Shown here one piece after another: positions 43,810 through 63,649 of a DNA stretch of 64,000 bases. The translations under genes and the position numbers were made by a program. The number at the start of each line of letters is the position of its first letter. Positions within the stretch are counted from its first letter, which is position 1. The stretch is from an uncultured virus (IMG/VR IMGVR_UViG_3300020049_001894) (Duplodnaviria; Heunggongvirae; Uroviricota; Caudoviricetes), in IMG/VR virus record IMGVR_UViG_3300020049_001894. One strand, written 5' to 3'. Below the pieces are notes generated by a model that saw nothing but the letters and a program-made list of their open reading frames with translations, was not told the DNA's origin and searched no databases.

Positions 43810-43810
43810 G

Positions 43811-48150: not shown

Positions 48151-48152
48151 TC

Positions 48153-49151: not shown

Positions 49152-49227
49152 TTGGCAAATACAATCGACAGCCTGCTTTTTGTGGGCTAAAATTCAAAGC
49201 ATAACTAGATAACTATTGAGATTATTC

Positions 49228-49716
49228 ATGAAAAAGCCTCTACTATTCTCCCAGGCCGGTTCCGAGGTCGTACGGTATCACACCCTAACCACTCTGGTCA
49301 GGGAAACCGTCGGTCACCACTCCCACATGGTGGCGATGATCTGCTACATATTGCATCCGCAGTGTTCTCGTGACCTACTGCTGGCAGCGCTTACGCATGA
49401 TCTCGCCGAGCAAGCCACGGGAGACATTCCGTCGACCGCTAAGCGCCTGTACGGTGTTGATGACCAGGTGTCCTCTCTTGAAGACTCCGTAATGCGGGCC
49501 GCTGGGCTGGAGTTTCCACACCTAACGGACTACGAGAAGCGTATTCTCAAGCTAGCCGACGTTGCGCAGGGCGCGTTGTACTGCGTGCGTGAAATGCAGC
49601 TGGGTAACCGCATGATGCGCAAAGTGTTTGACCGCTACATGTCCTACGCTGCGGACATGGGCCTGATTGGTGTTGAAGAAGAACTGTTTGAAATCATCCG
49701 AGGAGAATCACTGTGA
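49228..49716 (+). CDS. HD-domain (YfbR-like) nucleotide phosphohydrolase
   Basis: RYH, ETVGHHS, HDLAE..TGDIP, KLAD. Confidence 0.85.
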   Translation: MKKPLLFSQAGSEVVRYHTLTTLVRETVGHHSHMVAMICYILHPQCSRDLLLAALTHDLAEQATGDIPSTAKRLYGVDDQVSSLEDSVMRAAGLEFPHLTDYEKRILKLADVAQGALYCVREMQLGNRMMRKVFDRYMSYAADMGLIGVEEELFEIIRGESL

Positions 49717-50129
49717 GCGAAGCAAATAATATTCAGGTGGGTGGGTCTCACTACAAGACTGAGGGTATGCAGCACTGGGATATTGTAGACGAGTTTGAAG
49801 TCTGCTACCTGGCGGGCAATGCCACCAAGTACCTCACCCGGTTCCGCCGCAAAAACGGTGTTCAAGACCTGCAAAAAGCTCAGCACTATATTGAGAAAAT
49901 GATTGAGGCTCGAGGTAAGTATGCTAGGCGCGCTGAGGGTGACGTACCATTGCCAGTGCTTGACACGTTCTTTGCTGACAACGGTATTACCGGTCCCGAG
50001 CGCGAGCCTATCCGCTTGGTGTTCAACTGGCTCACTCCACACGACCTACGCAGCGCCTCAGTTTGGGTCAAGGCTCTGATTGATGAGTTCGAGGCCGGGC
50101 CGACCTCCGCGTACGTCAAGCAAGACTGA
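49713..50129 (+). CDS. DUF3310-like protein
   Basis: QVGGSHY, GNATKY..R..KNG.QDL.KA.HY. Confidence 0.8.
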   Translation: MSEANNIQVGGSHYKTEGMQHWDIVDEFEVCYLAGNATKYLTRFRRKNGVQDLQKAQHYIEKMIEARGKYARRAEGDVPLPVLDTFFADNGITGPEREPIRLVFNWLTPHDLRSASVWVKALIDEFEAGPTSAYVKQD

Positions 50130-50130
50130 A

Positions 50131-51966
50131 ATGGGTACTTTTGTGTTCGATAGCGAGGTTTTGCCAAACTATACCCTGTTCGCGTTTAAGAACGTGGATA
50201 CGGGTGAGTACTGGCGGGTACGGCGTCACGAGGACCGCGCGCCGGAGCGCCTAATGGCCTTCCTGCATCAGCCTGATTCCACGTTTGTCGGGTTCAACAA
50301 TAAGAGCTTCGACGATGTCATCGCGTCTGCGTTCTGCGTCGGACGCACTGAACAAGAAATCAAACGTATCGCCACTGACATTATTGAAAATAGGCTGCAG
50401 CCCTGGGCCGCGCGGCGCAAGTACTCCCTGCCGGACATTGGTTTCGATTCAATCGACTTGATAGAGGTGGCCCCCTCGTTCGTGGGTTTGAAAGCCTATG
50501 GCGCTCGCATGCATATGCCGCTGTTGCAGGACATGCCTATAGCACACGACGAGGACATAACGCCTGAGCAGCGTCCAATTGTAGACTCATACTGCGACAA
50601 CGACTTGGACACCACTGAAGAGCTGCTCAAACGGCTAGACGCTCAGCTGCTGCTCAGGGTGCAGATGTCTCGTCAGTATGGTGTAGACATGCGCAGCAAG
50701 TCGGACTCCCAGATGGCTGAGCAGGCGTACATCAAGACCCTGAAGCTAGAGCGCCGGGAAAACAAGATCCCCGTAGCTATCACCTACACCCCGCCCGCGT
50801 TCTTGGTGTTCAAAGACCCCGCGTTACAGGCCCTGCTGGAGCGCACCTCAGCGCACGTGTTTGAGATGAATAAGAGCACGGGGCACGTTATTCTGCCGGG
50901 GTTCCTGGGCGAGGAAGTCATCAAGTTCGGCTCAGGCTCTTACCAGCTGGGTGTGGGCGGTATACACAGCACCCACGACAAGTCGGTTTGTCATGTAGCC
51001 GGTGACGGTGCGCTGTTTGACATTGACGTCACCTCGTATTACCCGTCCATCATCTTGAATTGCGGGCTGGTGCCCGAGGGGTTGGGGCAACCGTTCCTGG
51101 ATGAGTATCGTCGCATCTATAACACTCGGGTTGCCGCTAAGCGTGCAGGTGACAAGGTCACTATGGACACACTACGGATTGCCCTGAATGGCACCTTTGG
51201 CAAGCTCGCAAGCCGCTGGTCAGTGCTCTACGCGCCGGACTTGATGCTGGCAGTGACACTGACCGGGCAGTTCACGCTGCTCATGCTGATTGAGAAGCTG
51301 GAGGAAGTCGAGGCTGCTATCCTGTCAGCTAACACCGACGGTATCGCCATCGGCTGCTCTCGGGAGGTGTTCCCTCTAGTTGAAAAAACAGTTGCTGACT
51401 TCACGCAGTTGTCAGGCTACAACTTCGAGTACACGCACTACCGCGCGCTGGCGATGAAGGACGTAAATTCATATTTCGCCGTCAAAGCGGATCGTTCGCT
51501 CAAAGTCAAGGGTATCTATGCCCCGTTGAGCCTGTCGAAAAACGTCTCTGCGCAGGTTTGTTCTGACGCTGTAGGCCAGTGGCTAGCTAATGGTGTTTCG
51601 TTCCGCGAAACCATTCAAAACGCTCCCTTTACGGCGTTCTTGAGCGCTCGCAACGTCACTGGCGGTGGAGAACAGTCCGGCCAGTACTTGGGCAAGGTGG
51701 TTCGGTGGTATCAGACTACTGACACAACCCTTGAGCCGTTGAAGTACGTCAAGAACGGAAACAAGGTGCCTAAGACCGATGGCGCGCGGGCATGCATGGA
51801 CATTTCGGGTATAGTTGGACACCCGGAGGACTTGCACTACGGGTGGTACTACCGTGAAGCGATCAAGATCGCTGTGGCGGTGGGTGCTTCTAACTATCTA
51901 ATTGAAGAACAACGCCAGCTCGTGGCCCCCACACCTAAGAAAGCTAAAAATGGAAAACGGAAATAG
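50131..51966 (+). CDS. DNA polymerase, B-family-like with N-terminal 3'-5' exonuclease
   Basis: FDSE, GFNNKSFD, YCDND (exonuclease); DVTSYYPSII, RIALNGTFGK, NTDG (polymerase). Confidence 0.88.
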   Translation: MGTFVFDSEVLPNYTLFAFKNVDTGEYWRVRRHEDRAPERLMAFLHQPDSTFVGFNNKSFDDVIASAFCVGRTEQEIKRIATDIIENRLQPWAARRKYSLPDIGFDSIDLIEVAPSFVGLKAYGARMHMPLLQDMPIAHDEDITPEQRPIVDSYCDNDLDTTEELLKRLDAQLLLRVQMSRQYGVDMRSKSDSQMAEQAYIKTLKLERRENKIPVAITYTPPAFLVFKDPALQALLERTSAHVFEMNKSTGHVILPGFLGEEVIKFGSGSYQLGVGGIHSTHDKSVCHVAGDGALFDIDVTSYYPSIILNCGLVPEGLGQPFLDEYRRIYNTRVAAKRAGDKVTMDTLRIALNGTFGKLASRWSVLYAPDLMLAVTLTGQFTLLMLIEKLEEVEAAILSANTDGIAIGCSREVFPLVEKTVADFTQLSGYNFEYTHYRALAMKDVNSYFAVKADRSLKVKGIYAPLSLSKNVSAQVCSDAVGQWLANGVSFRETIQNAPFTAFLSARNVTGGGEQSGQYLGKVVRWYQTTDTTLEPLKYVKNGNKVPKTDGARACMDISGIVGHPEDLHYGWYYREAIKIAVAVGASNYLIEEQRQLVAPTPKKAKNGKRK

Positions 51967-52294
51967 CCGAACGGTATTTGTCGTTTGCGTGGACAATGCA
52001 AAGGATGTGTCGGACGCGAAGCGCTTCGGCAAGCTGCGCGGAATCTTCTCAAACATGCGCAAACCGTATAACACCATGGGCATGATTAGACATGCCCGTT
52101 CGATTTTGAAAGATTGGCATCAGGGTGACTATCTACTGTTCATGGGGGACCCAGTTCTCTGCGCAGTGGCTATGATCGTTGTAGCCGAGTACGATGACGT
52201 TGTCAACGTATTGCAGTGGGATCGCTTGGGTTACCACTACGTGCCAGAAAGCTGGAACTTCGACGCGATAAATTCGACTCATGGTGAGTCATAA
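51950..52294 (+). CDS. Hypothetical replication-module protein
   Basis: AKRFG, DYLLFMGDP, LQWD. Confidence 0.7.
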   Translation: MENGNSRTVFVVCVDNAKDVSDAKRFGKLRGIFSNMRKPYNTMGMIRHARSILKDWHQGDYLLFMGDPVLCAVAMIVVAEYDDVVNVLQWDRLGYHYVPESWNFDAINSTHGES

Positions 52295-52316
52295 CTTGAA
52301 AACTGGAGAACTTTAA

Positions 52317-53087
52317 ATGGCAAAAGCTGAACAGAAACCTGCGGCCCCCGAGTGGCAAGCCGCGCTGCGTGTGGGCAAACAAAAAGTGCCCCCGCGCATT
52401 TGCATCTACGGGGGCCACGGCATCGGCAAGAGCACTATCGCGAGCCAGTTCCCTCGGCCAATCTTCATCAGCACTGAAGAGGGTATTGACCAGTTGGACG
52501 TAACCAGTTTCCCCAAGGCTCAGACCATCGGGGATGTGGTCGCATCTATCAAGACGCTTCTGAAAGAAGACCATGAATTTAAGACTGTGGTCGTTGACAG
52601 CGTGGACTGGCTGGTTGAGCCGCTCATCGTGGACAGTGTCAACTCGCAGTATGACGAGAAAGCCCAGGCGTACGGCAAGGGCTCAATGTACATTGCAGAA
52701 GAGTTTCGTGAGATCCTGCAAGGGTTGGACGCGCTGCGGTTGAAGAAAGGTATGAACGTAGTGCTCATTGCTCACGCTGCCGTGGTCAAATATCTTGATC
52801 CTCGCACAGACGAGTACGACAAATTTCAACCTAAGCTGCCAAAGGCGTGCAACGCGCTATTGCAAGAATGGGTTGACATCATGGCGTTCGCTGCTTTCAA
52901 AATCATCATCAAAAAGAGCGATGCAAAGGGTTTTGACGCGGCACGCACACGCGGGGTGACTACCGGGGACCGACTGTTACACCTGGTTGAAAACCCAGCG
53001 TATGTCGCTAAGAACCGCTACAACTGCCCAGATGAAATCGAAATGACAATTGAAAACTTGTCGAAACTGCTCCCCCTCGCTAACTAA
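52317..53087 (+). CDS. AAA ATPase, Sak4-like single-strand annealing protein
   Basis: YGGHGIGKST, VVDSVDWL, YGKG, IAH, AKNRY. Confidence 0.8.
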   Translation: MAKAEQKPAAPEWQAALRVGKQKVPPRICIYGGHGIGKSTIASQFPRPIFISTEEGIDQLDVTSFPKAQTIGDVVASIKTLLKEDHEFKTVVVDSVDWLVEPLIVDSVNSQYDEKAQAYGKGSMYIAEEFREILQGLDALRLKKGMNVVLIAHAAVVKYLDPRTDEYDKFQPKLPKACNALLQEWVDIMAFAAFKIIIKKSDAKGFDAARTRGVTTGDRLLHLVENPAYVAKNRYNCPDEIEMTIENLSKLLPLAN

Positions 53088-53107
53088 ACTGTAAAGGAAA
53101 ACACACC

Positions 53108-53593
53108 ATGGCTAAATTTAATTTTGATGTTTCTGAAGTCGACGTCAACGCAACGGTCTCCCGTGACCCTGTCCCCGCTGGGGACTACGTACTCAAGTGC
53201 CTGGAGGCTGAGGAAAAGCAGACCCGGTCCGGCGGCACTATGATCAAAGCGAAGTTCGAGGTGGTCGGTGGCGACTACGACGGCAAGTGGATCTGGGAGA
53301 ACTACAACATCGTCAACGCGAGTGAGAAAGCCCAGAACATCGGGCGTCAGCAGTTGGTCTCATGGGCTACCGCGTGCGGCAAGCCGGACGCTGATGACAC
53401 TGACAAACTGATTGACCGTAAGTTCACTGCTACGGTGGGCATTGAGATGGGAACTGGCGGGTACTCAGACAGCAACAAGATCAAGTCCTACCTGATGCCG
53501 GAAGCGGCTGAAAAGCCTGCCAAGGCTCCGGCTAAGGCGGCTGCGCGAGCGGCTAAGCCCGCTGCTGGTAAGACAGCAAACCCATGGGACTAG
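53108..53593 (+). CDS. DUF669-like ssDNA-binding protein
   Basis: PVPAGDY, N.IK.Y, Ala/Pro/Lys tail ending PWD. Confidence 0.75.
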   Translation: MAKFNFDVSEVDVNATVSRDPVPAGDYVLKCLEAEEKQTRSGGTMIKAKFEVVGGDYDGKWIWENYNIVNASEKAQNIGRQQLVSWATACGKPDADDTDKLIDRKFTATVGIEMGTGGYSDSNKIKSYLMPEAAEKPAKAPAKAAARAAKPAAGKTANPWD

Positions 53594-53602
53594 TATGGTT
53601 AT

Positions 53603-53624
53603 AGGGGCTTAGGCCCCTTTTCTT
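53603..53624 (+). terminator. Rho-independent terminator
   Basis: AGGGGC-TTAG-GCCCCT-TTTCTT. Confidence 0.75.
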
Positions 53625-53647
53625 AACAACTCAATAAAGGAATAACT

Positions 53648-54493
53648 ATGGCTCTGATACCCCCCTCAAACACGCAGGAAATCATCAACCGGATTTACGC
53701 TGCAATCCACAAAGAAAAACAGGACAAAGAACTATACCTGGGTCGCCTGGGCTCATCCAGCATCGGCAACGAGTGCCCCCGGGCCACCTGGCTGAGCTGG
53801 CGCGCATTTGCCAAGTCTGAGTTCGAAGGCCGTATGCTGCGCCTGTTTGAGACCGGCCACCTGCAGGAAGCTCGCATCGTGGTTGACTTGAAGCGCGCGG
53901 GGTTCACGGTGTTTGAAGTTGACGCTGAAGGTAACCAGTTCCAGTACATTGACGAAACTGGCCACTTCACCACCAAGCTTGACGGTGTCATCAAAGGCGT
54001 GCCCGGGTCGTCTGATAAGCCGCACATTCTTGAGATCAAAACCCACAACAAGAACAGTTTTGCTGGGGTGGTGAAGCATGGGGTGCAGAAGTCCAAGCCG
54101 ATCCACTACGCTCAAGTGCAGTCTAGTATGAGCCTGAGCGGTATAGACCGCACCCTGTACGTGGCGCTCTGCAAGGACGACGAGCAGTTCTACGTAGAGC
54201 GTATCAAGGAAGACAAGACTGAGCAGAAGCTCATCGGTCGGCGCATTGTCAGCCTGGTAAATGCAACCATCCGCCCGGCTCGCATCAATGAAGACATTGA
54301 GTCTTTTGCGTGCAAGTTCTGCGACATGAAAGAAGTGTGTTTTGACAAAGTGGCCCCGCTGCGCAACTGCCGCACATGCCGCAACTGTTTTGCCGCCGAA
54401 GCAGGCTCATGGGAGTGCCGCCTAGGAGCTCCGCGTATCATTGACAAAGACATGCAGCGCTCTGGCTGCGGAGAGTACGAGGTTATATGCTAA
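53648..54493 (+). CDS. PD-(D/E)XK (Cas4-like) exonuclease
   Basis: SIGNEC.R, G...E, LDG, EIKT, YAQVQ, CKFC...C. Confidence 0.85.
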   Translation: MALIPPSNTQEIINRIYAAIHKEKQDKELYLGRLGSSSIGNECPRATWLSWRAFAKSEFEGRMLRLFETGHLQEARIVVDLKRAGFTVFEVDAEGNQFQYIDETGHFTTKLDGVIKGVPGSSDKPHILEIKTHNKNSFAGVVKHGVQKSKPIHYAQVQSSMSLSGIDRTLYVALCKDDEQFYVERIKEDKTEQKLIGRRIVSLVNATIRPARINEDIESFACKFCDMKEVCFDKVAPLRNCRTCRNCFAAEAGSWECRLGAPRIIDKDMQRSGCGEYEVIC

Positions 54494-54966
54494 TCGTCGC
54501 GATTGACCCTGGCCTTTCCGGCGCCATAGGGTTCCTCCGAAATGGCGTTTACGTAGCCGTAGAGGACATGCCGACCGTTGTCAAGGGGGTTGGCTCAGTC
54601 AAGCGCGAAGTCTCCCCTGCGGGGTTAAAACAGCTCATCCGTAAGCACCTAGTTGAAGGTGAGGAGGTTGTGGCAGTGTTGGAAAAGATAGGCCCTATGC
54701 CTGCCCAGGGCGTGTCATCAGTATTTAGTCTAGGAGACAGCTTCGGTTGCGCCAGGTCCATCCTGGTTAGCTTTGATTTTGAGCTACATCAAGTCACGCC
54801 GCAAGTATGGAAAAAGAGCTATAATCTAAGCTCGGACAAGGAGCAAGCGAGAGCCTTAGCTTCTCGTTTATTTCCAACTGCGCCTTTATACCTTAAAAAG
54901 CATGACGGTAGGGCAGAGGCGATTCTTATAGCTAAGTATCTGTATGAGTCAAAGTTCAAACGATAG
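54487..54966 (+). CDS. RuvC-like Holliday junction resolvase
   Basis: IDPGLSGA, LE, PQVWKK, DGRAEA. Confidence 0.85.
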   Translation: MLIVAIDPGLSGAIGFLRNGVYVAVEDMPTVVKGVGSVKREVSPAGLKQLIRKHLVEGEEVVAVLEKIGPMPAQGVSSVFSLGDSFGCARSILVSFDFELHQVTPQVWKKSYNLSSDKEQARALASRLFPTAPLYLKKHDGRAEAILIAKYLYESKFKR

Positions 54967-55687
54967 AATATATTATGTATATTCACATTCAAGAAATGAC
55001 ACGGGCGTGGTCTTTTATTATGGAAAAGGTAAAGGTGGCCGAGCTTATTACAAATATAGGAATAAATGGCACGACCACATAGTTAGCAAGGTTGGAATGA
55101 CTGTGACTATTTTATGCTCTGGGCTAACTGACGATGAAGCTAAGAAAGAAGAGATAAGATTGATACGTGAAGCCGCTAATTTAGGGTTTCCGCTAACTAA
55201 CCAAACCCCAGGGGGAGATGGTGTTGGAGGAGAAGCATCCCACCGAGGCGGGAGTAAGGCATTTGCTTTGAAACTAGGTATTCATGCCCCTGGCGTAGCT
55301 GCTAAAGGTGGAAGAGCGGGTGCCAAGACAATGATGGAGGCTAAGACTGGGTTGTTTGGTAGAAGTCCAGATGAGAGATCCAGAGACAGTAAAATTGCAG
55401 GACAGGTGGCGCATAATCGAAAGCTGGGTATATTTGCATATTCAGATGAAGAATTCAAAGAAGTGAGGTCACTGGGTGGTAAAAAAGCATCACGGATGCA
55501 GAAAGAAACTAAAACAGGAATATTTGGTCTTTCTAATGAAGAACTTTCTAAGAATGCGGTTAAAGCTGGTAAAGTTACCGGCTCTCAGCGTTGGAAATGT
55601 TTAGTATGCGGAATGACAACAACTCCTGGCAATTTAGGCAGGCACCAGAAAGACAGGGTGCACTCAGGTAAAGAGCGAATAGCGTGA
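54944..55687 (+). CDS. GIY-YIG-like homing endonuclease with internal repeats and C2H2-like finger
   Basis: YYVYSH..FYYGKG..RA, LTNQTPGGDG; K(L/T)G(I/L)(F/H) repeats; CLVCG..GRHQK..H; AT-rich. Confidence 0.75.
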   Translation: MSQSSNDRIYYVYSHSRNDTGVVFYYGKGKGGRAYYKYRNKWHDHIVSKVGMTVTILCSGLTDDEAKKEEIRLIREAANLGFPLTNQTPGGDGVGGEASHRGGSKAFALKLGIHAPGVAAKGGRAGAKTMMEAKTGLFGRSPDERSRDSKIAGQVAHNRKLGIFAYSDEEFKEVRSLGGKKASRMQKETKTGIFGLSNEELSKNAVKAGKVTGSQRWKCLVCGMTTTPGNLGRHQKDRVHSGKERIA

Positions 55688-55796
55688 TTGGCAAAAGCAA
55701 TCGATAACGCACTACCAGTTTGAAAATACAAACTGCTTGCCCGTTCTTTGCACTATACTTCAAAGTATAACTTAATAACTCTGAAAGGAAAATTGT

Positions 55797-55910
55797 ATGA
55801 CACCGCTAGAAAGACTTCACCGTGACCTCGGGGCACCTCGCTGGTTTTGGCCCGTGGTGCTAGTCGCGCTATTGCTAATTTTTGTCTTCGCGGGAGGGCT
55901 CATAGAATGA
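55797..55910 (+). CDS. 37-aa membrane peptide
   Basis: Own translation: MTPLERLHRDLGAPRWFWPVVLVALLLIFVFAGGLIE; AAAGGA RBS. Confidence 0.6.
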   Translation: MTPLERLHRDLGAPRWFWPVVLVALLLIFVFAGGLIE

Positions 55911-56020
55911 CTGATTGGTTTGACGAAATGGTCGGCACTTTGCGGGACTTTTTCACGGTCGTAGGCGTCGTATCAACGCTCGCATTTGTCCTTGGCTATT
56001 TTTGGGCGTTGCCGCTGTGA
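55907..56020 (+). CDS. 37-aa membrane peptide
   Basis: Own translation: MTDWFDEMVGTLRDFFTVVGVVSTLAFVLGYFWALPL; ATGA overlap. Confidence 0.55.
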   Translation: MTDWFDEMVGTLRDFFTVVGVVSTLAFVLGYFWALPL

Positions 56021-56214
56021 TGAACAAAATCTACCCATCCCGACTAACCACGGGCGAAGAGTACACCGGCAACCAGGCGTTCAAGGGTGCAGGCATCCAA
56101 CGCTGGTGCGCGAAGTGCGAAAGCCACCGGGCCACCGGCAACGGCTCGCATCAGCGCGTGCAGGGGGTTATGCAGTGGGTCTGCAAACAGCATCCGAAAG
56201 TGACCACAAAATGA
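56020..56214 (+). CDS. Small zinc-ribbon-like protein
   Basis: CAKC...CKQH. Confidence 0.55.
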   Translation: MNKIYPSRLTTGEEYTGNQAFKGAGIQRWCAKCESHRATGNGSHQRVQGVMQWVCKQHPKVTTK

Positions 56215-56281
56215 TCACTCTACGCTGCGGCAAATGTGGCCGCACATACCAAGGCTGGGGTCCATGCCCGTGGGGGTGCGT

Positions 56282-56728
56282 ATGACCCGCAAACGCAGCA
56301 ACTACCGCCCCCGTGCCGTCATCAAAGACGTCATGAGCTGGATCAAGCAGGGCCACGAACCCTTGACTGCGGACACAGACACCCACATGCGGATCGTTAC
56401 CCGCATACACGGCTCGGTGGTGGCCTTGCAAGGGGGCACTGCTGATGTCCACGACCTCAACGCACTTATCAGCGCGAGCAATATGGCGACGGGCTACAAG
56501 AACATCGACCTTGGACGCGACTATGAGCAAGAGATACGCGCAGGTGCACATGCCGTGGCTGCTGTGCGCGAGAGGTTGGTCAAGTGGCGCAAGGTGCAGG
56601 CCACTTCTACTGAGGTCGAAGCCGTCTCGCTCTTGGTGCAGATATGTCAAGCCCAGCTTGAGGCCAGCACGCGGGCTGATTTTGAGAAAGCAAGCGCCAT
56701 TGTGGCTCGGAACGGATGTGATGTATGA
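56282..56728 (+). CDS. Hypothetical phage protein
   Basis: MTRKRSNYRPR start; helical. Confidence 0.7.
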   Translation: MTRKRSNYRPRAVIKDVMSWIKQGHEPLTADTDTHMRIVTRIHGSVVALQGGTADVHDLNALISASNMATGYKNIDLGRDYEQEIRAGAHAVAAVRERLVKWRKVQATSTEVEAVSLLVQICQAQLEASTRADFEKASAIVARNGCDV

Positions 56729-56850
56729 CCACCCGACTAGCAGTTGCATTCGTTATCGGCATCCCCGTGCTGTGGGCCTGCTGGCTTGCATACAAGCTCG
56801 CTGAGTACGCGGTTCGGGGGTGGTATTGGATTAAAGGAGAAAAGACATGA
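56725..56850 (+). CDS. 41-aa membrane peptide
   Basis: Own translation: MTTRLAVAFVIGIPVLWACWLAYKLAEY...; ATGA overlaps. Confidence 0.5.
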   Translation: MTTRLAVAFVIGIPVLWACWLAYKLAEYAVRGWYWIKGEKT

Positions 56851-56942
56851 CAACAGGAGCCGAGCAATTGGCAAACGAACTCGTCGGTGGCTATTCTGAG
56901 TCTACATGGCCGCTCAGTGGTCGCCGCTTTTAGGAGTTGGTT

Positions 56943-57161
56943 ATGAGTGAACTACTAGAGGCCGCCAGAGCGGTCATTACCTGGCATGAACGTTGGCCTA
57001 AATTAGCGCCGATTCAGTGCCCACGCATGCCAGATGGGAGGGCACTTGCCTGCCGCTGCAACACGATTTGCTGCCATGAGCGTCTGCGCTTGGCAATCGC
57101 CACGGAAGACAGCATGCAACATAACGCCGGAGACAAGCCGCCGCAGGTCGGCCTTGATTGA
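56943..57161 (+). CDS. Cassette-borne Cys-rich hypothetical protein
   Basis: AGGAG RBS; ATG within GTTATG; ends HNAGDKPPQVGLD inside the attC-like site. Confidence 0.65.
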   Translation: MSELLEAARAVITWHERWPKLAPIQCPRMPDGRALACRCNTICCHERLRLAIATEDSMQHNAGDKPPQVGLD

Positions 57162-57171
57162 CCTGTTAAAT
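57119..57171 (-). repeat. attC-like site (53 bp)
   Basis: ACATAAC GCCGG AGACAAGCCG CC GCA GG T CGGCCTT G ATT GACCT GTTAAAT. Confidence 0.85.
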
Positions 57172-57194
57172 GACAAACCTTTGAACGGAGAAAG

Positions 57195-57401
57195 ATGATG
57201 CACACGATACCAAAACACTTGGGCGAATTTACCGCACTGGCCCAAGGTAAAACCGATTACACAGTGCAAGTGATACACACCAACCCCGAGTCGTATGGCG
57301 ACTTGATGACGATCTGCGCGACAGAGGGAGCGGTGTACATCACACGCGAGCAGGCGAAAGCGTTTTTTGGGTTGGTTGAACCTTTGCCATTTAACGCATA
57401 G
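57195..57401 (+). CDS. Cassette-borne hypothetical protein
   Basis: GGAGA RBS; ends LPFNA. Confidence 0.7.
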   Translation: MMHTIPKHLGEFTALAQGKTDYTVQVIHTNPESYGDLMTICATEGAVYITREQAKAFFGLVEPLPFNA

Positions 57402-57442
57402 CTGCCCGGTGCGAAGCATCCGCGCCGAGCGTTGAGTTAAAC
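57389..57442 (-). repeat. attC-like site (54 bp)
   Basis: ATTTAAC GCATA GCTGCCCGG TGC GAA GCA T CCGCGCC G AGC GTTGA GTTAAAC. Confidence 0.85.
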
Positions 57443-57470
57443 CGAATTTTTACCGGAGAAGGAATAGAAC

Positions 57471-57665
57471 ATGAAAGACAAGCTGATTGCAGCAGGCGTG
57501 AAAAACTTGCGCGAATTTGGCTACCCAAAATGCAACGCAGAAAACATTTTGACCGACATGGTTTACAAGGCATTTTTTGTCTCAATGCTTAAAGACAACA
57601 AGGGGCACTCGCCACAAGTAGACAAGGCCATTGACGAATTGTTGACGATCTGCAATGCGGTTTAA
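57471..57665 (+). CDS. Cassette-borne hypothetical protein
   Basis: Stop is the TAA of GTTTAAC. Confidence 0.75.
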   Translation: MKDKLIAAGVKNLREFGYPKCNAENILTDMVYKAFFVSMLKDNKGHSPQVDKAIDELLTICNAV

Positions 57666-57746
57666 CGCAGAAGTGAAAGGCGACACCAAATGACCACCGA
57701 ACAACCAACCCCGCCGCCAGTCGTCCTTTCGACTGCCCTGTTAAAC
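57660..57746 (-). repeat. attC-like site (87 bp) with a start codon in its loop
   Basis: GTTTAAC GCAGA AGTGAAAGG CGAC [loop] GTCG T CCTTTC G ACT GCCCT GTTAAAC. Confidence 0.85.
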
Positions 57747-57974
57747 CCTTTGCCGTGCCCATTTTGCGGCCATGTTGGGCTTGACTTCCGTGAAGGCACC
57801 ACGTTCCGCTGGATCATCGCGAAGTGCGGCGGCTGCGGTGCAACACGCGGAGAGACGTGCATACAGACCCTAGGCCAAGGGACAAAAGACGAGTGGATGC
57901 AGGAAGCGCAACAAGATGCCATTGCAATCTGGAACACGAGGTTTAACGCAGAAATAACCGGCTTGTCCGGTTGA
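57690..57974 (+). CDS. Lar-like restriction-alleviation family zinc-finger protein (cassette-borne)
   Basis: LPCPFCG...CGGCGA...AIAIWNTR signature. Confidence 0.75.
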   Translation: MTTEQPTPPPVVLSTALLNPLPCPFCGHVGLDFREGTTFRWIIAKCGGCGATRGETCIQTLGQGTKDEWMQEAQQDAIAIWNTRFNAEITGLSG

Positions 57975-57988
57975 TTGCCCGGTTATCG
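57941..57988 (-). repeat. attC-like site (48 bp, minimal)
   Basis: GTTTAAC GCAGA AATAACCGG CTTG T CCGGTT G ATT GCCCG GTTATCG. Confidence 0.85.
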
Positions 57989-58014
57989 GGCTGGAACAGA
58001 AATAGGAGATTGAA

Positions 58015-58311
58015 ATGCTGAATCCAGAAGACTCAAACATGGCAGCGAATGCAATTTGTCATGCCGCACTAATGTGTCAAGAGGCGTTCCGCCAAGCCAC
58101 TCACGGGTACGGAACCCCAAGCGCAATCTACAAGCCAAAGTTGTTTGTAGACGGAAACCAGTGGTGCGCGCTGCTTGGGGAAAACATCCAAGTAGGCGTG
58201 TGCGGGTTTGGATCCACGCCACACCATGCAATGGCTGCGTTTGACCGAGCGTGGTTTGCGCCTCTGCCAGATAACGCCGGAAATAAGCCGCCGCAGGTCG
58301 GCCTTGATTGA
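58015..58311 (+). CDS. Cassette-borne hypothetical phage protein
   Basis: DGNQWCALLGENIQ.GV.GFG.TP; ends DNAGNKPPQVGLD. Confidence 0.75.
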   Translation: MLNPEDSNMAANAICHAALMCQEAFRQATHGYGTPSAIYKPKLFVDGNQWCALLGENIQVGVCGFGSTPHHAMAAFDRAWFAPLPDNAGNKPPQVGLD

Positions 58312-58321
58312 CCTGTTATGT
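58269..58321 (-). repeat. attC-like site (53 bp)
   Basis: AGATAAC GCCGG AAATAAGCCG CC GCA GG T CGGCCTT G ATT GACCT GTTATGT. Confidence 0.88.
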
Positions 58322-58334
58322 GACGGGGTGAGCC

Positions 58335-58715
58335 ATGCCATACAAAGACAAAGCGAAAAAGGTAGCGAATGGGAAAGCCTACTACGCGGCCAACAAAGAG
58401 CGCATAGACGCACGAAACGCCGCGTATAGGGCTTTGCATCTTGACGAGGAACGTCAGCGGCAAATCGCATGGCGAACGGAAAACAGAGACAGAAGCAACG
58501 CAATAAAAGCGAAGCACAAGGCCGCAAACCCTGACAAGGTTGCCGCCCAAGCCAAGAAGGAACGCGACACGCTGGCCGATGGGTATGTGAGAAAAAAGAT
58601 AGCGCAGGTGTACGCAATACCTGCGGCGCAGATACCGGAGCCGCTGGTAGGCGCACACCGTGAATTATTAAAACTCAAACGGGAGATATGGAAATGCAGA
58701 ACTGTGACGAACTAA
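58335..58715 (+). CDS. Basic helical protein (first gene of a two-gene cassette)
   Basis: Lys/Arg-rich YYAANKER-type repeats. Confidence 0.7.
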   Translation: MPYKDKAKKVANGKAYYAANKERIDARNAAYRALHLDEERQRQIAWRTENRDRSNAIKAKHKAANPDKVAAQAKKERDTLADGYVRKKIAQVYAIPAAQIPEPLVGAHRELLKLKREIWKCRTVTN

Positions 58716-58909
58716 GGGCAGAACTGGCGCAGATCTTTGCGCAGCTAAAGGACGGTGCAATTAAGCCGAGCGAAGCCGCCGAACTGGCGAACCTAGCCGG
58801 GAAGATGATCGGCAGCGCGAAGGTGCAGGTTGAGTATTACGCGCTGCGAAAAGAACAGCCGCGTATAGAGTGGCTGGAGTCACATAACGCAGAGGTGAGT
58901 GGCGCGTAG
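58688..58909 (+). CDS. Hypothetical protein (second gene of a two-gene cassette)
   Basis: GGAG RBS; ends HNAEVSGA in the attC-like site. Confidence 0.7.
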   Translation: MEMQNCDELRAELAQIFAQLKDGAIKPSEAAELANLAGKMIGSAKVQVEYYALRKEQPRIEWLESHNAEVSGA

Positions 58910-58935
58910 CGTCCCGCTCGACTGCCCTGTTAAAC
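58882..58935 (-). repeat. attC-like site (54 bp)
   Basis: ACATAAC GCAGA GGTGAGTGG CGC GTA GCG T CCCGCTC G ACT GCCCT GTTAAAC. Confidence 0.85.
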
Positions 58936-58952
58936 AATACTGAAAGAAAGCA

Positions 58953-59129
58953 ATGTTCTCAATACATTTTCACAAGCCTCCGCAATGGCACTGGATGCCG
59001 AGCACACACCAAGTGGTGCAGTTTCTGCCAAACAGCAAGTATTGCCACGGGTGCTGCGTCTATCAGTGGCTTTTCATCGGCATTGAATTACGCCTCAAAG
59101 TTTTCGAGCAATCGAGGCTTGAGTGGTGA
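58953..59129 (+). CDS. Cassette-borne 58-aa protein (below the ORF-track cutoff)
   Basis: Own translation: MFSIHFHKPPQWHWM...SRLEW; fills the cassette exactly. Confidence 0.55.
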   Translation: MFSIHFHKPPQWHWMPSTHQVVQFLPNSKYCHGCCVYQWLFIGIELRLKVFEQSRLEW

Positions 59130-59130
59130 T

Positions 59131-59181
59131 GTTTAACGCAGAAATCAGCGCCCGTAGGTGCGATGGATTGCCCGGTTATCG
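59131..59181 (-). repeat. attC-like site (51 bp)
   Basis: GTTTAAC GCAGA AATCAGCGC CC GTA GG T GCGATG G ATT GCCCG GTTATCG. Confidence 0.82.
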
Positions 59182-59205
59182 GGCTGGAACAAATATAGGA
59201 GAGAA

Positions 59206-59301
59206 ATGATGAAACTTGTATGTATACACCGATGGACACTGATGACCGATTACCCGCCGCACTATTCGCGGTGCAGTAAATGCGGAGCAACTAAATCATG
59301 A
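59206..59301 (+). CDS. 31-aa zinc-finger-like peptide (cassette-borne)
   Basis: AGGAG RBS; CIHRW...CSKCG. Confidence 0.55.
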   Translation: MMKLVCIHRWTLMTDYPPHYSRCSKCGATKS

Positions 59302-59447
59302 AACCCAACATTTATTCAAAGATCATTTACATCGTTCTTTTCGGTTTCTTCGCTTCGCCATTTCTGCTGATCGGCCTGCTTGCCGGTGCTATATGGATTT
59401 CGCTTAGGACGGGCTGGTGGTGGGCAGAAAAGTTCGGCAACTTGTAA
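59298..59447 (+). CDS. 49-aa membrane peptide (cassette-borne)
   Basis: ATGA overlap; IIYIVLFGFFASPFLLIGLLAGAIWISL. Confidence 0.55.
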   Translation: MKPNIYSKIIYIVLFGFFASPFLLIGLLAGAIWISLRTGWWWAEKFGNL

Positions 59448-59451
59448 TGCC

Positions 59452-59580
59452 AGATAACGCGATGTATACCGCAAAACCTGCAATATAACGTGGCAACTTG
59501 CAGCATAAAAACAGCCTCTAGCCCATGCCAAATAAGGCTAGAGTGCTCATCTAAAAATAGCACGAAAGGATGTAGAAATG
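59452..59580 (-). promoter_or_regulatory. attI-like site plus conserved block, copy 2
   Basis: Minus strand GGTATAC-ATCGC-GTTATCT; homologous to 1876-2004. Confidence 0.6.
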
Positions 59581-59973
59581 AACCCAACAAAAATTGAGAT
59601 AATGAACCCAACAAAAATTAAGATCGTCGTCCAGGGCGTACCTGTGCCCACTGACGACGCTTGGGTAGTAACACGGCATGAGGATATTGCACTGGTAGTC
59701 TTGGACATGCAAACTAAATGGTGTGTACTCGGAGCAACCTCCGGCGTATACGACAGGGAATCAAAGCTGTACACGCCATGTGTGCACATCTCCCCTACGG
59801 ATCGGGCCATGCAAATCGTTGCAGGGCGTGACATGACTGATGACGACATGGACACAGAAATTGCATTCCCAGAATTCCAAGGCTGGGATATAGCTGTGTC
59901 GGATTGCCAGCGGTACACGCTGAGTGTGTGCTTCACAAAACGGGCCGGAACAAACGAAGGAGATAAGCAATGA
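59578..59973 (+). CDS. Hypothetical protein with a duplicated 8-codon N-terminus
   Basis: MNPTKIEI MNPTKIKI; C-terminal part matches 1..221. Confidence 0.7.
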   Translation: MNPTKIEIMNPTKIKIVVQGVPVPTDDAWVVTRHEDIALVVLDMQTKWCVLGATSGVYDRESKLYTPCVHISPTDRAMQIVAGRDMTDDDMDTEIAFPEFQGWDIAVSDCQRYTLSVCFTKRAGTNEGDKQ

Positions 59974-60062
59974 GCAAACAATCGAACGCCAAAGAAGCCC
60001 AGCAATATGTGGCAAAAGCACCCCCGCAAACGTGCGGGGTGTGCAGGAATTGCGTGCCCGTG
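59753..60062 (+). repeat. Long direct repeat, copy 2 of 1-310
   Basis: Direct alignment by eye. Confidence 0.95.
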
Positions 60063-60221
60063 ATTGGTGCAGTGCTGATCTATAAAAACCCTAAGTCAAT
60101 CGCCGATGGGACGCATTACGTGGATGCTCAGGTGGCCCAGAAGTGCGGCATTGGCGGCTTCGCGGTGAAGAAAATGGGCACTTGCCGCATGTGGTTGCCA
60201 CTTCTGCCAGATAACGACTGA
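59970..60221 (+). CDS. Cys-rich hypothetical protein (eroded cassette)
   Basis: CGVCRNC...CGIGGFAVKKMGTC; ends LPDND in the attC-like site. Confidence 0.7.
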   Translation: MSKQSNAKEAQQYVAKAPPQTCGVCRNCVPVIGAVLIYKNPKSIADGTHYVDAQVAQKCGIGGFAVKKMGTCRMWLPLLPDND

Positions 60222-60268
60222 AATAACCGGCACGCTTTAGCGTGTCCGGGTTGATTGACGGGTTAGCC
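60209..60268 (-). repeat. attC-like site (60 bp)
   Basis: AGATAAC GACTG AAATAACCGG CACGC TTTA GCGTG T CCGGGTT G ATT GACGG GTTAGCC. Confidence 0.85.
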
Positions 60269-60335
60269 GTGCGCCCGATGAATGCACGGCGACTGATGAG
60301 GATTTGAACATGACCGCAGTGGCCTGGGAACAGAA

Positions 60336-60569
60336 ATGAACTACATCACAAAGACGACGAGCGTGACAGTGCTGCCAGAAGGCGAGCCGCTGTACTCTGA
60401 AATGGCAACTGAAATCAAGATGACAGACGATGAAGGCGGCTGGGAGTTTGTTGAGGTGGTGCAGAGTGGCAGAACGGATGTCGGTAAGATATGCATTGCC
60501 CCCGAAGAGTGGCCTGCAATCCGCGATGCGGTTGACTCGATGATTAAACAATGTGGGGGCGCGAAATGA
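60336..60569 (+). CDS. Hypothetical phage protein
   Basis: DDEGG.EFVEV.Q..I.PEEWP..R.A motif. Confidence 0.7.
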   Translation: MNYITKTTSVTVLPEGEPLYSEMATEIKMTDDEGGWEFVEVVQSGRTDVGKICIAPEEWPAIRDAVDSMIKQCGGAK

Positions 60570-60862
60570 CGCCTCGCCAACGAGAAATCCTTGAAGCCAT
60601 GCGCCACGGGCCAATGACAGCAGTTGAGCTGTCAAAGACTACCAGCATAGGCCGCAGTTGGATGAGCGATCTGCTGGCCGCAGTACACAAAGCTGGGCTG
60701 ACTGAGCGCTACGAGCGCAAGCCCGGCGCTACGGGCAGCAACTGGGAGTACGTCTACAGCTTGTCTGACGCTGGGCGTAAAGCGATTGGGCTGGATACGA
60801 GCGGGAACAACCCGTTTTTATGGCGTAGCTTTAAGCAGCCTGTGGCGATGGGGGCGATATGA
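60566..60862 (+). CDS. Winged-HTH protein; paralog of 2002..2289
   Basis: Shares MTPRQREILE and GNNPFLWR..KQPVAMGA. Confidence 0.75.
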   Translation: MTPRQREILEAMRHGPMTAVELSKTTSIGRSWMSDLLAAVHKAGLTERYERKPGATGSNWEYVYSLSDAGRKAIGLDTSGNNPFLWRSFKQPVAMGAI

Positions 60863-60934
60863 TGAATCAATTTTCAAAAGGGTTTATGCGATGATTTACA
60901 TTCTAATCATGGTGATTTTTATTCTGGCTGACCT

Positions 60935-61156
60935 ATGACCACTCTACCCGACCACCTCAAGGCTCTGGAGTCTCGCTTGGGACTCACGGAGCCACAAGCG
61001 GCTAGGTACCTCGGGGTGCCTGTCACCACTTATCGCAAGTGGCGCAATGGGACACGGAAGCCGGGGAGTGTGGTGTATCGAGTGTTGTTTCTGGTGCAGT
61101 TGATTGAACGGGCTGCGCCAGATGCTCACAGGATTTTATTGGAGGATGTGAAATGA
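60935..61156 (+). CDS. XRE/Cro-like HTH protein
   Basis: LGLTEPQAARYLGVPVTTYRKWRNG.RKP. Confidence 0.8.
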   Translation: MTTLPDHLKALESRLGLTEPQAARYLGVPVTTYRKWRNGTRKPGSVVYRVLFLVQLIERAAPDAHRILLEDVK

Positions 61157-61180: not shown

Positions 61181-63649
61181 TCATTGTCCTCTGACTATTG
61201 GCCGACCATGCGGTGACAGTCGGTATATCTCCTCCAGTTGCCGCTGCTTCGCCTGAATCACACCTTCACGGTACTCTTGGAACATGGACATGAGAGCCGG
61301 GTTAATCGCCCATTCGGCATGGTGCTGGTGTTCCCGTGATCCGTCATCCACTCGCATAACCCAGCAGGCTTTCTCCATAGCGCTCATGGCTTGGATAACA
61401 GTGGTATCGTTTTGGAACGAGTTGCCCATCAGTTGCCGACGACCTGAGTTCTTGATTGTGGTCAGGGTCAGTGTGCCCTTGTCGCAGTTGTGGATGATGT
61501 AGTCGGTAAGCCACATATCGAAGTTGCTGACCTCACCGATCTCCCCAAGGGCGTACTTGAATGCCGGGATCAGGTAGGAGCGCACGAGGTGGACTACTCG
61601 CTCCACGACACCCTCCTCTACTTCGGTGCTGAACGGACTCTCTATCAGGTGGAACACCAGCACCAGACGGCCTACGGTGCCCTCCAGCTTGCCGTAGGCG
61701 GTCATGAACGAGTCAGTGGCTTGGAGTAGACGCTCGTCCTGCTTGCGCCCCTCGTACCACATTTGAAACTCGCGGAACTTAACATGTGCCCCGGCGCTCA
61801 GGCGGTATGTGGTCGGATTAAGCGCATAGACTATGCGCAGAGTTTGCTCCCATTGGTCCTTGTTCGTCAGGTAATCGGGAACCGGGTTATTCAGTTTGGT
61901 CTTGGTGTGGTGCAGCACAGCAGGCAGGAACCGCTGGATCAGACCATCGGTGGCCATGGCCTTGAGATGCTCCTTGAACACGGCTGGCTGGCAGTTGCCG
62001 TAGATCGAGACGGCGAAGTTGTCACAGTGGATGCTCCCTGTACCAACCCGGTCCATGTCATACGATTCAGACTCGTAACCTACGACCCATGCAGAACGAT
62101 CCTCGCCGCCCATCTTGTCGGTCAGCTTGCGAATCCATGAGTTCATCTCGTCGAGGTAGCACAGCAGCCCACGGGGGCGCTCTGCTGCGTGACGCACGAG
62201 CTTCTGACTGGTGATGTCCGAAACGGTGATCTTGACCGGCACTGGCTGCGGGGGCAGATCGGGGATCGGTGGGGGTTCACCACCCATCAGGAACTCAGGG
62301 GTTGCTGCGTACTCAAGCGATGCCTTCTTTGCCGCTGCGTAGCTGGCCTCTTTCAGTTCCCAATCGAGTAGGTCTTTACGAAACCGGGGGTGATCCTCGC
62401 CCTCCAAGTCCTTGAGTAGCGTCATCATGGGGCGGCTACCCGGCGACTTCTTGTCCCCTGGATCACCGATGGTCATTAGCCACAGGATGGGAGGGACGCG
62501 GAAGCCCTCCATTAGCTCCAGCCGTGTCCGGGCATCCACTACCCCACAGACAGCAGCCAGACCAGCCCAGAGGGGAACCAAGGGGTCGCAACCCACCGCG
62601 CTACTGATCTCAGACGAGCGGGTTGCCAGTACCTTTGGGACAAGGGTCATGTCCAGTTCAGGAGGAGTTGGGCGCATCCCGCTCAATACGGAGCCGGGAG
62701 CCGTGGGGATGGTGCCCGTGGCCTTGAACAGTCCTGCGATGTCGGGCATGGGGCGCACCCACCCGTGATCCCGCGCGATGTGAAACAAGGTGCCTACCTT
62801 GACACTGTTCACCTTGTCCGACTTAAAGCTGTTCCACTGTGTCAGCATCTCCCGCTCACCGGGGTACTTGGCTTCGCTCTGCTTGCTCCACTCGTTCCAC
62901 AGGTACAGTGCTTGGTCAAGCTGGTTTGTCTGTGTACCTGCCCACTGTAGCGCCATGCCCACGTTCACCCACTCGTCACGGGAGCAGTCAGCAGGGATGT
63001 GCTCCACAGCCTTGCGAATATCTTCCCATGTGGCACCCAGCGCATCCGTGGTGCCGTCGATCCGCACACGCTCTTGATTCAGGAGTCCTTGCCACAGTGC
63101 GAGGACAGACTCTGGAATCTGGGGGAGGCGCATCCAGTTACCACGACCTGCCCAGCGATAGGGTTGATTGGTCTGAGGGTGGATGCTTGGTGGCAAGACA
63201 TCCTGCACCGTGGCACCGTTCGATGTGGCACAGCGCAACTCGTACACCGTGGCCCCGCCGATGATGATCTTCTTGCTAGGTAACACGACACCCGGAGGCA
63301 TGGCATAGAGTAGCTTACCGTGCCCTGCCCTCCCGCTGTCCACGATGACCGCATCCTGTGCATCATAGAGAGCGTTCAGGTCTACACCGTGACCCAGCAA
63401 CACGTTGACCGCTACACCCCAATCGTCTATGTCCAGCGCCATCGTTCCGCTGTAAGCATGTGCCAACCCGATACCGAAGCCGGGGGGTAGCTCTGTCTGT
63501 GACTTGAGGGTGTTCTGTTGCAGGTTCCACCCGATAGTACGTGGACCTTTGGACGAGGGTGGGATCGGTACAAGTGCCCAGCCGTGTCGGAGGTATGCGT
63601 CTACGCTTGCGGGGTGCTGGGCAACTTGGGGGTGAAGGACTGCGTTCAT
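61181..63649 (-). CDS. Second primase: Prim-Pol, PriCT-2-like and DUF3987/YfjI-like helicase domains
   Basis: YLRHGWALVPIP, ALDID, VLPPSIHP, WVNVGMAL, GDPGDKKSP, DEM, DGLIQRF. Confidence 0.85.
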   Translation of the reverse strand: MNAVLHPQVAQHPASVDAYLRHGWALVPIPPSSKGPRTIGWNLQQNTLKSQTELPPGFGIGLAHAYSGTMALDIDDWGVAVNVLLGHGVDLNALYDAQDAVIVDSGRAGHGKLLYAMPPGVVLPSKKIIIGGATVYELRCATSNGATVQDVLPPSIHPQTNQPYRWAGRGNWMRLPQIPESVLALWQGLLNQERVRIDGTTDALGATWEDIRKAVEHIPADCSRDEWVNVGMALQWAGTQTNQLDQALYLWNEWSKQSEAKYPGEREMLTQWNSFKSDKVNSVKVGTLFHIARDHGWVRPMPDIAGLFKATGTIPTAPGSVLSGMRPTPPELDMTLVPKVLATRSSEISSAVGCDPLVPLWAGLAAVCGVVDARTRLELMEGFRVPPILWLMTIGDPGDKKSPGSRPMMTLLKDLEGEDHPRFRKDLLDWELKEASYAAAKKASLEYAATPEFLMGGEPPPIPDLPPQPVPVKITVSDITSQKLVRHAAERPRGLLCYLDEMNSWIRKLTDKMGGEDRSAWVVGYESESYDMDRVGTGSIHCDNFAVSIYGNCQPAVFKEHLKAMATDGLIQRFLPAVLHHTKTKLNNPVPDYLTNKDQWEQTLRIVYALNPTTYRLSAGAHVKFREFQMWYEGRKQDERLLQATDSFMTAYGKLEGTVGRLVLVFHLIESPFSTEVEEGVVERVVHLVRSYLIPAFKYALGEIGEVSNFDMWLTDYIIHNCDKGTLTLTTIKNSGRRQLMGNSFQNDTTVIQAMSAMEKACWVMRVDDGSREHQHHAEWAINPALMSMFQEYREGVIQAKQRQLEEIYRLSPHGRPIVRGQ

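Follow-up and report, generated by a model that had tools for sequence, protein, structure and literature searches.

How do genes that show no similarity to one another come to stand between the same short leader and trailer? The question is raised by a stretch of 64,000 nt from an uncultured Caudoviricetes virus (IMG/VR record IMGVR_UViG_3300020049_001894), hereafter called the window, in which small open reading frames (ORFs) alternate with repeated motifs. A sequence-only reading had described three families of leader and trailer, and had explained them by replacement of the cargo inside an existing frame of attC site and ribosome-binding site, possibly by means of the phage's Sak4-like annealing protein and exonuclease. 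We find that the window very probably holds two integron-type cassette arrays in a phage devoid of integrase, i.e. clusters of attC sites lacking integron integrases (CALINs). On our best reading, these arrays were shaped both by site-specific exchange at the R box and by short-homology exchange at the ribosome site.

Leaders and trailers form the outer parts of hairpin sites

The motifs described earlier were all found in place, and each of the three families far exceeds chance. The leader of the first family, GTTATC(T/G)GGCTGGAACA..AGGAGA..ATG, is read directly at 1636, 57982 and 59175, and its pattern GTTATCKGGCTGGAACA has three matches in the window where 100 shuffles give an expectation of 0. 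The trailer TGCCAGATAAC ends the units starting at 57982 and 59175 (58265-58275 and 59448-59458) and has a third copy at 60205-60215; the pattern TGCCAKWTAAC is matched 6 times in the window, against 0.06 expected. A matching trailer had been claimed for these two units only, and rightly: the unit starting at 1636 ends in TGCCATTTAAC (1872-1882), which mismatches its own leader. The second family has its leaders at 1280 and 57165 and its trailers TTTGCCATTTAAC at 1583-1595 and 57383-57395, the third its leaders GTTGAGTTAAAC at 960 and 57431 (GTTAAAC box at 965 and 57436) and its trailers CGGTTTAAC at 1233-1241 and 57658-57666. The ORFs enclosed by the first family (81, 98 and 31 aa) are unrelated, as stated before, in that BLASTP finds no similarity; remote homology of the cargo ORFs was tested by BLASTP and tblastx only.

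What had not been stated is that a matching trailer is the reverse complement of the first 10-13 nt of its leader. The leader is made of an R'' box (GTTRRRY), a stem extension of 5-6 nt and a Shine-Dalgarno sequence; the trailer, at the far end of the cassette, is made of the complementary extension and the outer part of the R' box (RYYYAA|C). Leader and trailer are thus the outer parts of attC-like hairpin sites, which earlier had remained implicit. The first-family leader (GGCTGGTACAAATATAGGAGA...) also occurs without an attC site at 189-214 and 59943-59969, both times within the end of the gene upstream of an ORF (218-340 and 59970-60221, respectively).

There are 11 attC-type hairpin sites in the window, all on the + strand and forming two arrays (918-1642 and 57119-60268) between small + strand ORFs (Table 1). 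Each of them is composed of a 7-nt xxxTAAC box, a 5-nt spacer, an arm, a loop, a return arm with an extra G, a second 5-nt spacer and a 7-nt GTTxxxx box, and in all 11 the two boxes make up an R box, with inverted core sites RYYYAAC ... GTTRRRY. Site lengths are 48-60 nt, with one exception of 87 nt. On the + strand it is the 3' arm that bears the extra, bulged G, and this G is invariant across an alignment of ten sites. With three sites in 725 nt, eight in 3150 nt and no integrase, the two arrays have the composition that defines a CALIN (at least two clustered attC sites, no integrase).

A covariance model built from ten window sites (R1) recovers the held-out eleventh, E7, with an E-value of 4e-9; just two other matches appear in the window (E 1.5 and 3.8). 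Covariation was assessed on sites of the window, of 23 viral loci and of five loci in bacterial genomes or metagenome-assembled genomes (MAGs), 86 in number, of which 77 are distinct. All five pairs of the L-box helix covary with changes on both sides, and 95.8% of cells are paired among the 77 distinct sites; the covariation score is 0.378 compared with 0.164 after shuffling, and none of 500 shuffles reaches it, in an alignment fitted to the model, which favours structure. Of the 77 sites, 74-77 (97-100%) retain the inner TAAC/GTTA pairs and just 34-51% the three outer box pairs; the 5 + 5 nt of spacer between R box and L box are unpaired. E7 differs by its 63-nt centre, within the loop of which lie a Shine-Dalgarno-like AAAGG and the start codon (ATG) of a Lar-like ORF; about the first 19 residues of this ORF are encoded within the recombination site.

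Table 1 Features of the window (scores in bits are those of model R1 unless another source is named)
Feature	Position	Strand	Remarks
attC E1	918-971	+	57.0 bits; ATCTAAC / GCAAA / bulged-G hairpin / GTTGA / GTTAAAC
attC E2	1235-1286	+	61.5 bits; same centre and leader in L098, L129, L136
attC E3	1589-1642	+	63.6 bits; 3' box GTTATCT begins the first-family leader at 1636
attC E5	57119-57171	+	52.9 bits
attC E6	57389-57442	+	61.1 bits; 96% identical in L358, with other cargo there
attC E7	57660-57746	+	39.5 bits; long loop; left out of the model
attC E8	57941-57988	+	53.6 bits; 3' box begins the leader at 57982; identical centre in six contexts
attC E9	58269-58321	+	57.2 bits; 5' box ends trailer CTGCCAGATAAC
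attC E10	58882-58935	+	58.9 bits
attC E11	59131-59181	+	51.6 bits; 3' box begins the leader at 59175
attC E13	60209-60268	+	50.1 bits; behind ORF 59970-60221, which ends in the CTGCCAGATAAC trailer
First-family leader	1636-1669	+	R'' box, stem extension GGCTGG, A-rich spacer, AGGAGA, ATG
Cassette ORF, 81 aa	1667-1912	+	in L355 behind a different attC centre and Shine-Dalgarno sequence
Cassette ORF	57195-57401	+	99% identical in L358, with different attC and leader
Lar-domain cassette ORF	57690-57974	+	Pfam PF14354, E 2.3e-8, 34.6 bits (Pfam), cut-off 28.6
Cassette ORF, 98 aa	58015-58311	+	last 15 residues from trailer and next attC
Two small ORFs (31 and 49 aa)	59206-59447	+	second first-family unit
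Left array end	1872-1948	+	trailer and TAAC box, then conserved non-attC element; 84% identical to 59448-59524
Right array end	59448-59524	+	trailer TGCCAGATAAC and conserved non-attC element
Terminase, portal, head and tail genes	2409-43000	-	PHROG/Pfam scans
Early gene block	43063-61156	+	PHROG/Pfam scans; includes a family-A DNA polymerase
Recombination genes	52317-54966	+	Sak4-like annealing protein (52317-53087), SSB, Cas4-type exonuclease, resolvase

The phage + strand is the attC bottom strand

One bacterial MAG, G010, has clear sites, and its taxonomic order was used for the comparison with integron integrases. In that order, an integron integrase exceeds the TIGR02249 cut-off in 87 of 201 genomes (a tally that takes in one unpublished genome, G037, on which no other result depends), and R1 matches occur in 36 of 151. 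In 12 genomes (G137, G087, G151, G041, G053, G119, G029, G124, G068, G156, G122 and G059) an R1 match and a TIGR02249 match share a contig, the integrase match of G122 being a fragment below the cut-off. All 14 R1 matches concerned lie upstream of intI and on the strand of intI; they score 31-54 bits, compared with 40-64 bits in phages. Integron cassettes are transcribed divergently from intI, so the strand matched by R1 is the bottom strand of attC.

The layout of the sites leads to the same strand. As described in the available part of Nivina 2016 (PMC5027507), the bottom strand of attC has its AAC triplet in R' and is cleaved between A and C; its extrahelical bases are found near L'', on the other arm. 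Exactly this layout, with AAC in R' and the bulged G on the opposite arm, is found on the + strand of the window, which places the predicted crossover at TAA|C in the first box. The phage + strand is therefore the bottom-strand form of attC.

Scanning bacterial genomes with a degenerate pattern yielded mostly chance matches: L219, a 2.8-kb contig of a betaproteobacterial MAG, was the only one with two clear sites. No integron integrase over the cut-off was found in the genome of L219, nor in G011, which holds L198.

Cassette genes follow their site

Stop-free frames in the arrays are nearly as long antisense as sense, so the length of an ORF cannot decide which strand is coding. Among 41 inter-site segments of the window and 18 viral loci, 26 are at least 85% open on the - strand and 33 on the + strand. 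Two other lines of evidence bear on the coding strand. In seven of seven homologous cargo pairs, the third position of the + frame has collected the most substitutions (for example 5, 1 and 26 over the three positions). Six Pfam matches over the cut-off, found among 61 cassette ORFs, are all on the strand of the + frame: Lar restriction alleviation, a C-5 methylase, two N6/N4 methylases, Phage_gp49_66 and HNH. The cargo genes lie on the bottom-strand side of attC, and only the + frame is coding. It follows that attC precedes its ORF, the reverse of the usual cassette polarity; the canonical arrangement, with the ORF on the top strand and attC at its 3' end, was not found here.

Two registers are used where an ORF reaches the following site. 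Among the ORFs of the window and viral loci whose frame is clear (51), 32 continue beyond TAA|C into the attC of the neighbour, with AAC as a codon, and in 19 the TAA of the TAAC box is the stop; the third register is used by none, though it is free of stop codons. At the other end of the ORFs, ATGATG double starts were noted in 11 of 61 cassette ORFs and in 2 of 49 other genes of the window. The first ATG of ORF 57195 is missing in its 99% identical copy in contig L358, as if it were part of the frame and not of the cargo.

Complementary cassette ends explain the match of leader and trailer

That the two ends of an integron cassette are complementary, the crossover lying inside the R box, is a textbook property. 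We scored this on the outer three box bases and five flanking bases, leaving out three partial matches and keeping two near-duplicate contigs and the five bacterial genome or MAG loci. Where the 3' box of one site is set against the 5' box of its successor, 6.12 of 8 positions pair (n=52 adjacent pairs), compared with 3.87 within sites (n=83) and 4.06 in shifted controls (n=54). Cassette ends are thus complementary by virtue of a split R box, as in canonical cassettes: leader and trailer match because they pair in the excised circular cassette, as the two strands of the R stem. The families of leader and trailer are attC families, and the match that had been taken as a sign of cargo replacement is sufficiently accounted for by the split R box.

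Which ORF, then, belongs to a site? Over 1957 between-contig pairs, similarity of the site centre follows the downstream leader (rho 0.22, p 2.5e-23) and is unrelated to the upstream trailer (rho 0.00). Contigs L088 and L122 share an identical sequence as far as TAACGCCG, beyond which a whole cassette is different. Both results, together with the start codon of the Lar-like ORF inside the E7 loop, fit the bottom-strand rule, under which a cassette is an attC site with the ORF behind it. Junctions of both kinds do occur, attC plus ORF as well as ORF plus attC.

These results also bear on the possibility that the hairpins are attC look-alikes that undergo no site-specific recombination and act in the RNA, as operon signals for processing, stability or translational coupling. 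Their position would suit such a role: they lie on the transcribed strand between ORFs, each has a Shine-Dalgarno sequence a short and constant distance behind it, the ORF upstream often runs into the hairpin (32/51), and at 1667-1670 a stop codon overlaps the next start (ATGA); moreover, the phages have no integrase. Yet the same model finds DNA attC sites beside bacterial integrases with a strict strand polarity, the complementarity of cassette ends across 200-800 nt has no obvious role in RNA, and cassette-sized polymorphisms are bounded at TAAC. No Rfam family matches the sites, and terminator-like sites are not enriched (10 found, 6.8 expected). We therefore hold an RNA-level role in place of attC recombination to be very improbable.

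A 17-nt motif from the array ends matched two unrelated contigs without arrays, which could not serve as empty sites.

Cargo and frames are reassorted at the ribosome site or start codon

Comparison between contigs yielded 15 pairs that agree in both centre (at least 0.9) and leader (at least 0.75). In 13 of them the cargo shows no similarity, and in two it is related. Similarity stops 8-24 nt past the box (15-24 nt in 12 of the 15), just after the Shine-Dalgarno sequence. The pairs represent six modules, five of which carry more than one unrelated cargo. Likewise, GTTATCG/T leaders precede 14 ORFs of about 11 unrelated groups, which have in common only the ending (L/V)PDNA, encoded by the trailer. 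Unrelated cargo behind similar sites is, however, not special as such: chromosomal integron arrays, such as the Vibrio cholerae repeats, normally combine near-identical attC sites with many unrelated small ORFs.

Three clean recombinants were found, all in metagenome contigs. In L358 the cargo 57198-57396 is 99% identical behind another attC and leader, with breakpoints at ATG on the left and TTTAACG on the right. The same contig holds the attC and leader of E6 type, 96% identical, followed by the ORF found at 337-681 in the window, the junction lying inside CGGAGAA. In L355 the cargo 1667-1912 is 94% identical, together with its leader, behind another attC centre and Shine-Dalgarno sequence; this copy does have the matching trailer TGCCAGATAAC. 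In L089 leader and trailer are those that enclose 58022-58312 in the window, but the cargo is an unrelated one and the attC that follows is degenerate.

Sharp homology breakpoints at start codons had been predicted, and the ATG junction of L358 is one. From the observed junctions, cargo and frames of attC plus leader reassort at the ribosome site or start codon, where an integrase would not cut. The notion of a reused chassis thus stands in so far as the same attC and leader are found with unrelated ORFs and the same cargo behind other frames; as an account of de novo cassette birth it does not, exchange being all that was seen.

Degenerate or half attC sites occur in L089 (366-412) and, on the reverse strand, in L358 (about 2655-2685); in these, a GTTATGT box or the next start codon follows directly upon the TAAC box and first arm, which gives them the look of scars left by recombination without an integrase.

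Integrase and Sak4-like protein

PHROG and Pfam scans reveal no integrase in the window, and none was found in 24 other viral records with arrays. The tyrosine recombinase domain PF00589 is absent from four of five array-bearing records, the single match, in G009, reaching 34.6 bits where the cut-off is 265, and none of 20 array-bearing records reaches the TIGR02249 cut-off for integron integrases. A complete integron, with intI, attI and the promoter Pc beside the array, was not found.

The Sak4-like family (phrog_124, whose scan serves as positive control for the family) is present in the window-type records G001 and G003 and absent from all three array-bearing records with a completeness of at least 92% (G007, G008 and G009). 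G003, a complete close relative with Sak4, has no attC match, and its record ends just where the array would begin. Among 80 loci of phages with the same Cas4-type exonuclease family, three of which stop before the array, no attC match was found in 1.01 Mb under default filters. Five larger array-bearing records contain no relative of the window terminase or of the Sak4-like protein in searches run without a positive control, which places the attC family on at least two unrelated phage backbones. As the Sak4-like family and the arrays dissociate in both directions, the part assigned earlier to this protein is not borne out, and no link was found between the arrays and the recombination genes at 52317-54966.

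The view that cassettes are remade by swapping cargo within a fixed frame of attC and ribosome-binding site, through the phage's own recombination, has to be judged on this ground. It accords with the 13 of 15 same-frame pairs in which unrelated cargo begins just past the Shine-Dalgarno sequence, with the some 11 groups behind GTTATCG/T leaders, with the L358 and L355 recombinants and their breakpoints at ATG and CGGAGAA, and with the unused third register (0/51) and the enriched ATGATG starts. It leaves unexplained the reverse complementarity of trailer and leader, for which the R-box stem of attC accounts. Shared sequence at the junctions amounts to just 3-7 nt, the Sak4-like family is missing from 3/3 array-bearing records while an array-less complete relative has it, the exonuclease family comes without attC in all 80 loci, and existing cargo is exchanged with no birth of a cassette to be seen. 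As a sufficient account, cargo swap is possible but doubtful.

The attC family in other phages and its known relatives

An IMG/VR pattern scan followed by R1 gave 62 sites in 25 of 73 viral loci, one of which is a near-identical record; 16 of these loci have at least two sites at the spacing of small genes. The family was also met in two metagenome contigs.

This spread is relevant to whether a metagenome assembler has made or misjoined the repeats. The window does repeat itself with a period of about 59.7 kb (1-310 and 59753-60062, 95% identity), and a near-identical 62.4-kb IMG/VR record terminates within the arrays. Against an artefact stand the same family of sites in 25/73 viral loci, two metagenome contigs and bacterial genomes, the covariation of the sites and the coherence of the ORFs; we regard it as extremely improbable. 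Further self-repeats join 1872-2016 with 59448-59590 (79%) and 1999-2282 with 60563-60855 (69%), and the pair of arrays may represent a single hypervariable locus, of which two variants were joined in one contig. In contig L358, one array combines cassettes from both arrays of the window. One 101.8-kb IMG/VR contig contains two copies of the exonuclease about 57 kb apart (L019 and L047).

Among the closest known systems is that of Qi et al. 2023 (PMC9892861), who, in the portion of the paper available to us, report 17 CALINs among 10,705 NCBI phage genomes and recombination of attC sites of virulent phages by IntI1. Their CALINs and the window have in common attC arrays with small ORFs in phages without intI, virulent ones included. 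DNA methyltransferases are among the cargo there; here, three methylases and the Lar-like protein are found among 61 cassette ORFs. Their material was NCBI phage genomes, whereas the present family occurs in uncultured viral and metagenome contigs, and the available text makes no mention of gene polarity relative to the attC strand, of a Shine-Dalgarno leader or of start-codon breakpoints. A literature search turned up the 2023 paper, a 2026 survey of Acinetobacter phages that mentions CALINs and two preprints of 2024 on phage defence encoded by integrons; as far as their accessible text goes, none of these items describes such a family in uncultured phages.

As in sedentary chromosomal integron arrays, one attC family flanks many unrelated small ORFs, in cassettes whose ends are complementary through the R-box crossover. 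Unlike them, the window lacks intI, attI and Pc, its ORFs lie on the bottom strand with attC upstream, the conserved unit runs through the ribosome site, and the sites are shorter, with one bulged base.

For motif-mediated shuffling, the nearest analogue in phages is the promoter early stem-loop (PeSL) cassettes of T4-type phages. According to the available parts of the reports (PMC2839356, PMC4122927), conserved regulatory motifs with a stem-loop flank variable small ORFs in plastic regions of these lytic phages, and recombination from motif to motif is proposed to bring about modular shuffling; the motifs are of promoter-terminator type, without kinship to attC. In the window, a sigma-70-type scan, the only kind run, gives 5 promoter-like sites where 4.1 are expected. 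Altogether, the system is of a known kind, the phage CALIN; its reversed polarity, ribosome-site leader, spread in uncultured phages and start-codon junctions appear, set against the literature consulted, to be new.

Genomic setting

By PHROG and Pfam scans the window is a phage genome (Table 1). In a set of 50,697 phage records, no cultured phage has a DNA polymerase that reaches 40% identity to that of the window, and blastn finds no match to the cassette region.

The early block includes a thymidine hypermodification set at 45190-49151, with an amino acid:DNA transferase (45190-46203), a (helical) domain of 5-hydroxymethyl-deoxyuridine (5-hmdU) DNA kinase (47227-48150) and a thymidylate-synthase-like gene (48153-49151). 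Two genes resemble homing endonucleases (36141-36950 and 54944-55687). ORF 42124-42987 belongs to the same unannotated PHROG family as the first of them, and the two share a 92-nt stretch of 77% identity (36765-36856 and 42730-42821). A second primase-polymerase, with DUF3987 (61181-63649, - strand), differs from that at 37724-39802; it sits past the second copy of the array end, beside two small helix-turn-helix genes. A tail-fibre-like gene (14151-15605, - strand) includes long stretches of repeats of CCGCC type, which on the coding strand are rich in glycine.

Discussion

Site architecture, kinship with attC, strand, coding strand, complementarity of flanks and mosaic breakpoints are directly supported by the data, and together they underlie the reading of the window as two cassette arrays in an integrase-less phage. 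Several points weigh against it. R1 is a model of our own building and not that of IntegronFinder; the sites are short and have one bulged base, where studied attC sites have two or three; and the pairs behind flank pairing and centre linkage are phylogenetically non-independent. The L088/L122 swap has its right end 13 nt beyond GCATAAC, the same leader and cargo go with different centres (L107 versus L108 and L144; L088 versus L153), some junctions fall at the second box, the Shine-Dalgarno sequence, ATG or elsewhere and not at TAA|C, and outer box bases differ between L355 and the window. Under the bottom-strand rule the tails of the read-through ORFs would depend on the neighbour, so that a unit of ORF and downstream attC fits them better. 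Finally, no recombinase was identified, and attC recombination is suggested here by sequence and by the precedent given in the available part of PMC9892861.

In the mechanism that we propose, each cassette would consist of an attC hairpin, a short Shine-Dalgarno leader and one small ORF. An integron integrase of the host may cut at TAA|C and so move cassettes. A second exchange, independent of integrase, would use a few shared bases at the Shine-Dalgarno sequence or ATG and recombine cargo with frames of attC and leader. The cargo would serve anti-restriction and other accessory functions; the identifiable part of it is enriched for anti-restriction functions.

The arrays extend to uncultured phages a phenomenon first reported in 2023 from cultured ones, going by the accessible text of PMC9892861, and make the exchange junctions visible to the nucleotide. 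Should these sites be used by host integrases, a currency of gene exchange would be common to phages and bacterial integrons in their arms race.

How an ORF becomes attached to an attC site is, to our knowledge, an unresolved question, on which the start-codon junctions offer a concrete handle. More speculatively, and with rather low expectation on our part, phages could keep their own pool of reversed-polarity cassettes, in which attC and Shine-Dalgarno leader act as a portable adaptor for expression and mobility: any ORF joined to it before the next TAAC box, through a few shared bases at the ribosome site or start codon, would become mobile. Were this true, phage arrays would be a birthplace of new integron cassettes, and the genesis of cassettes would become directly testable.

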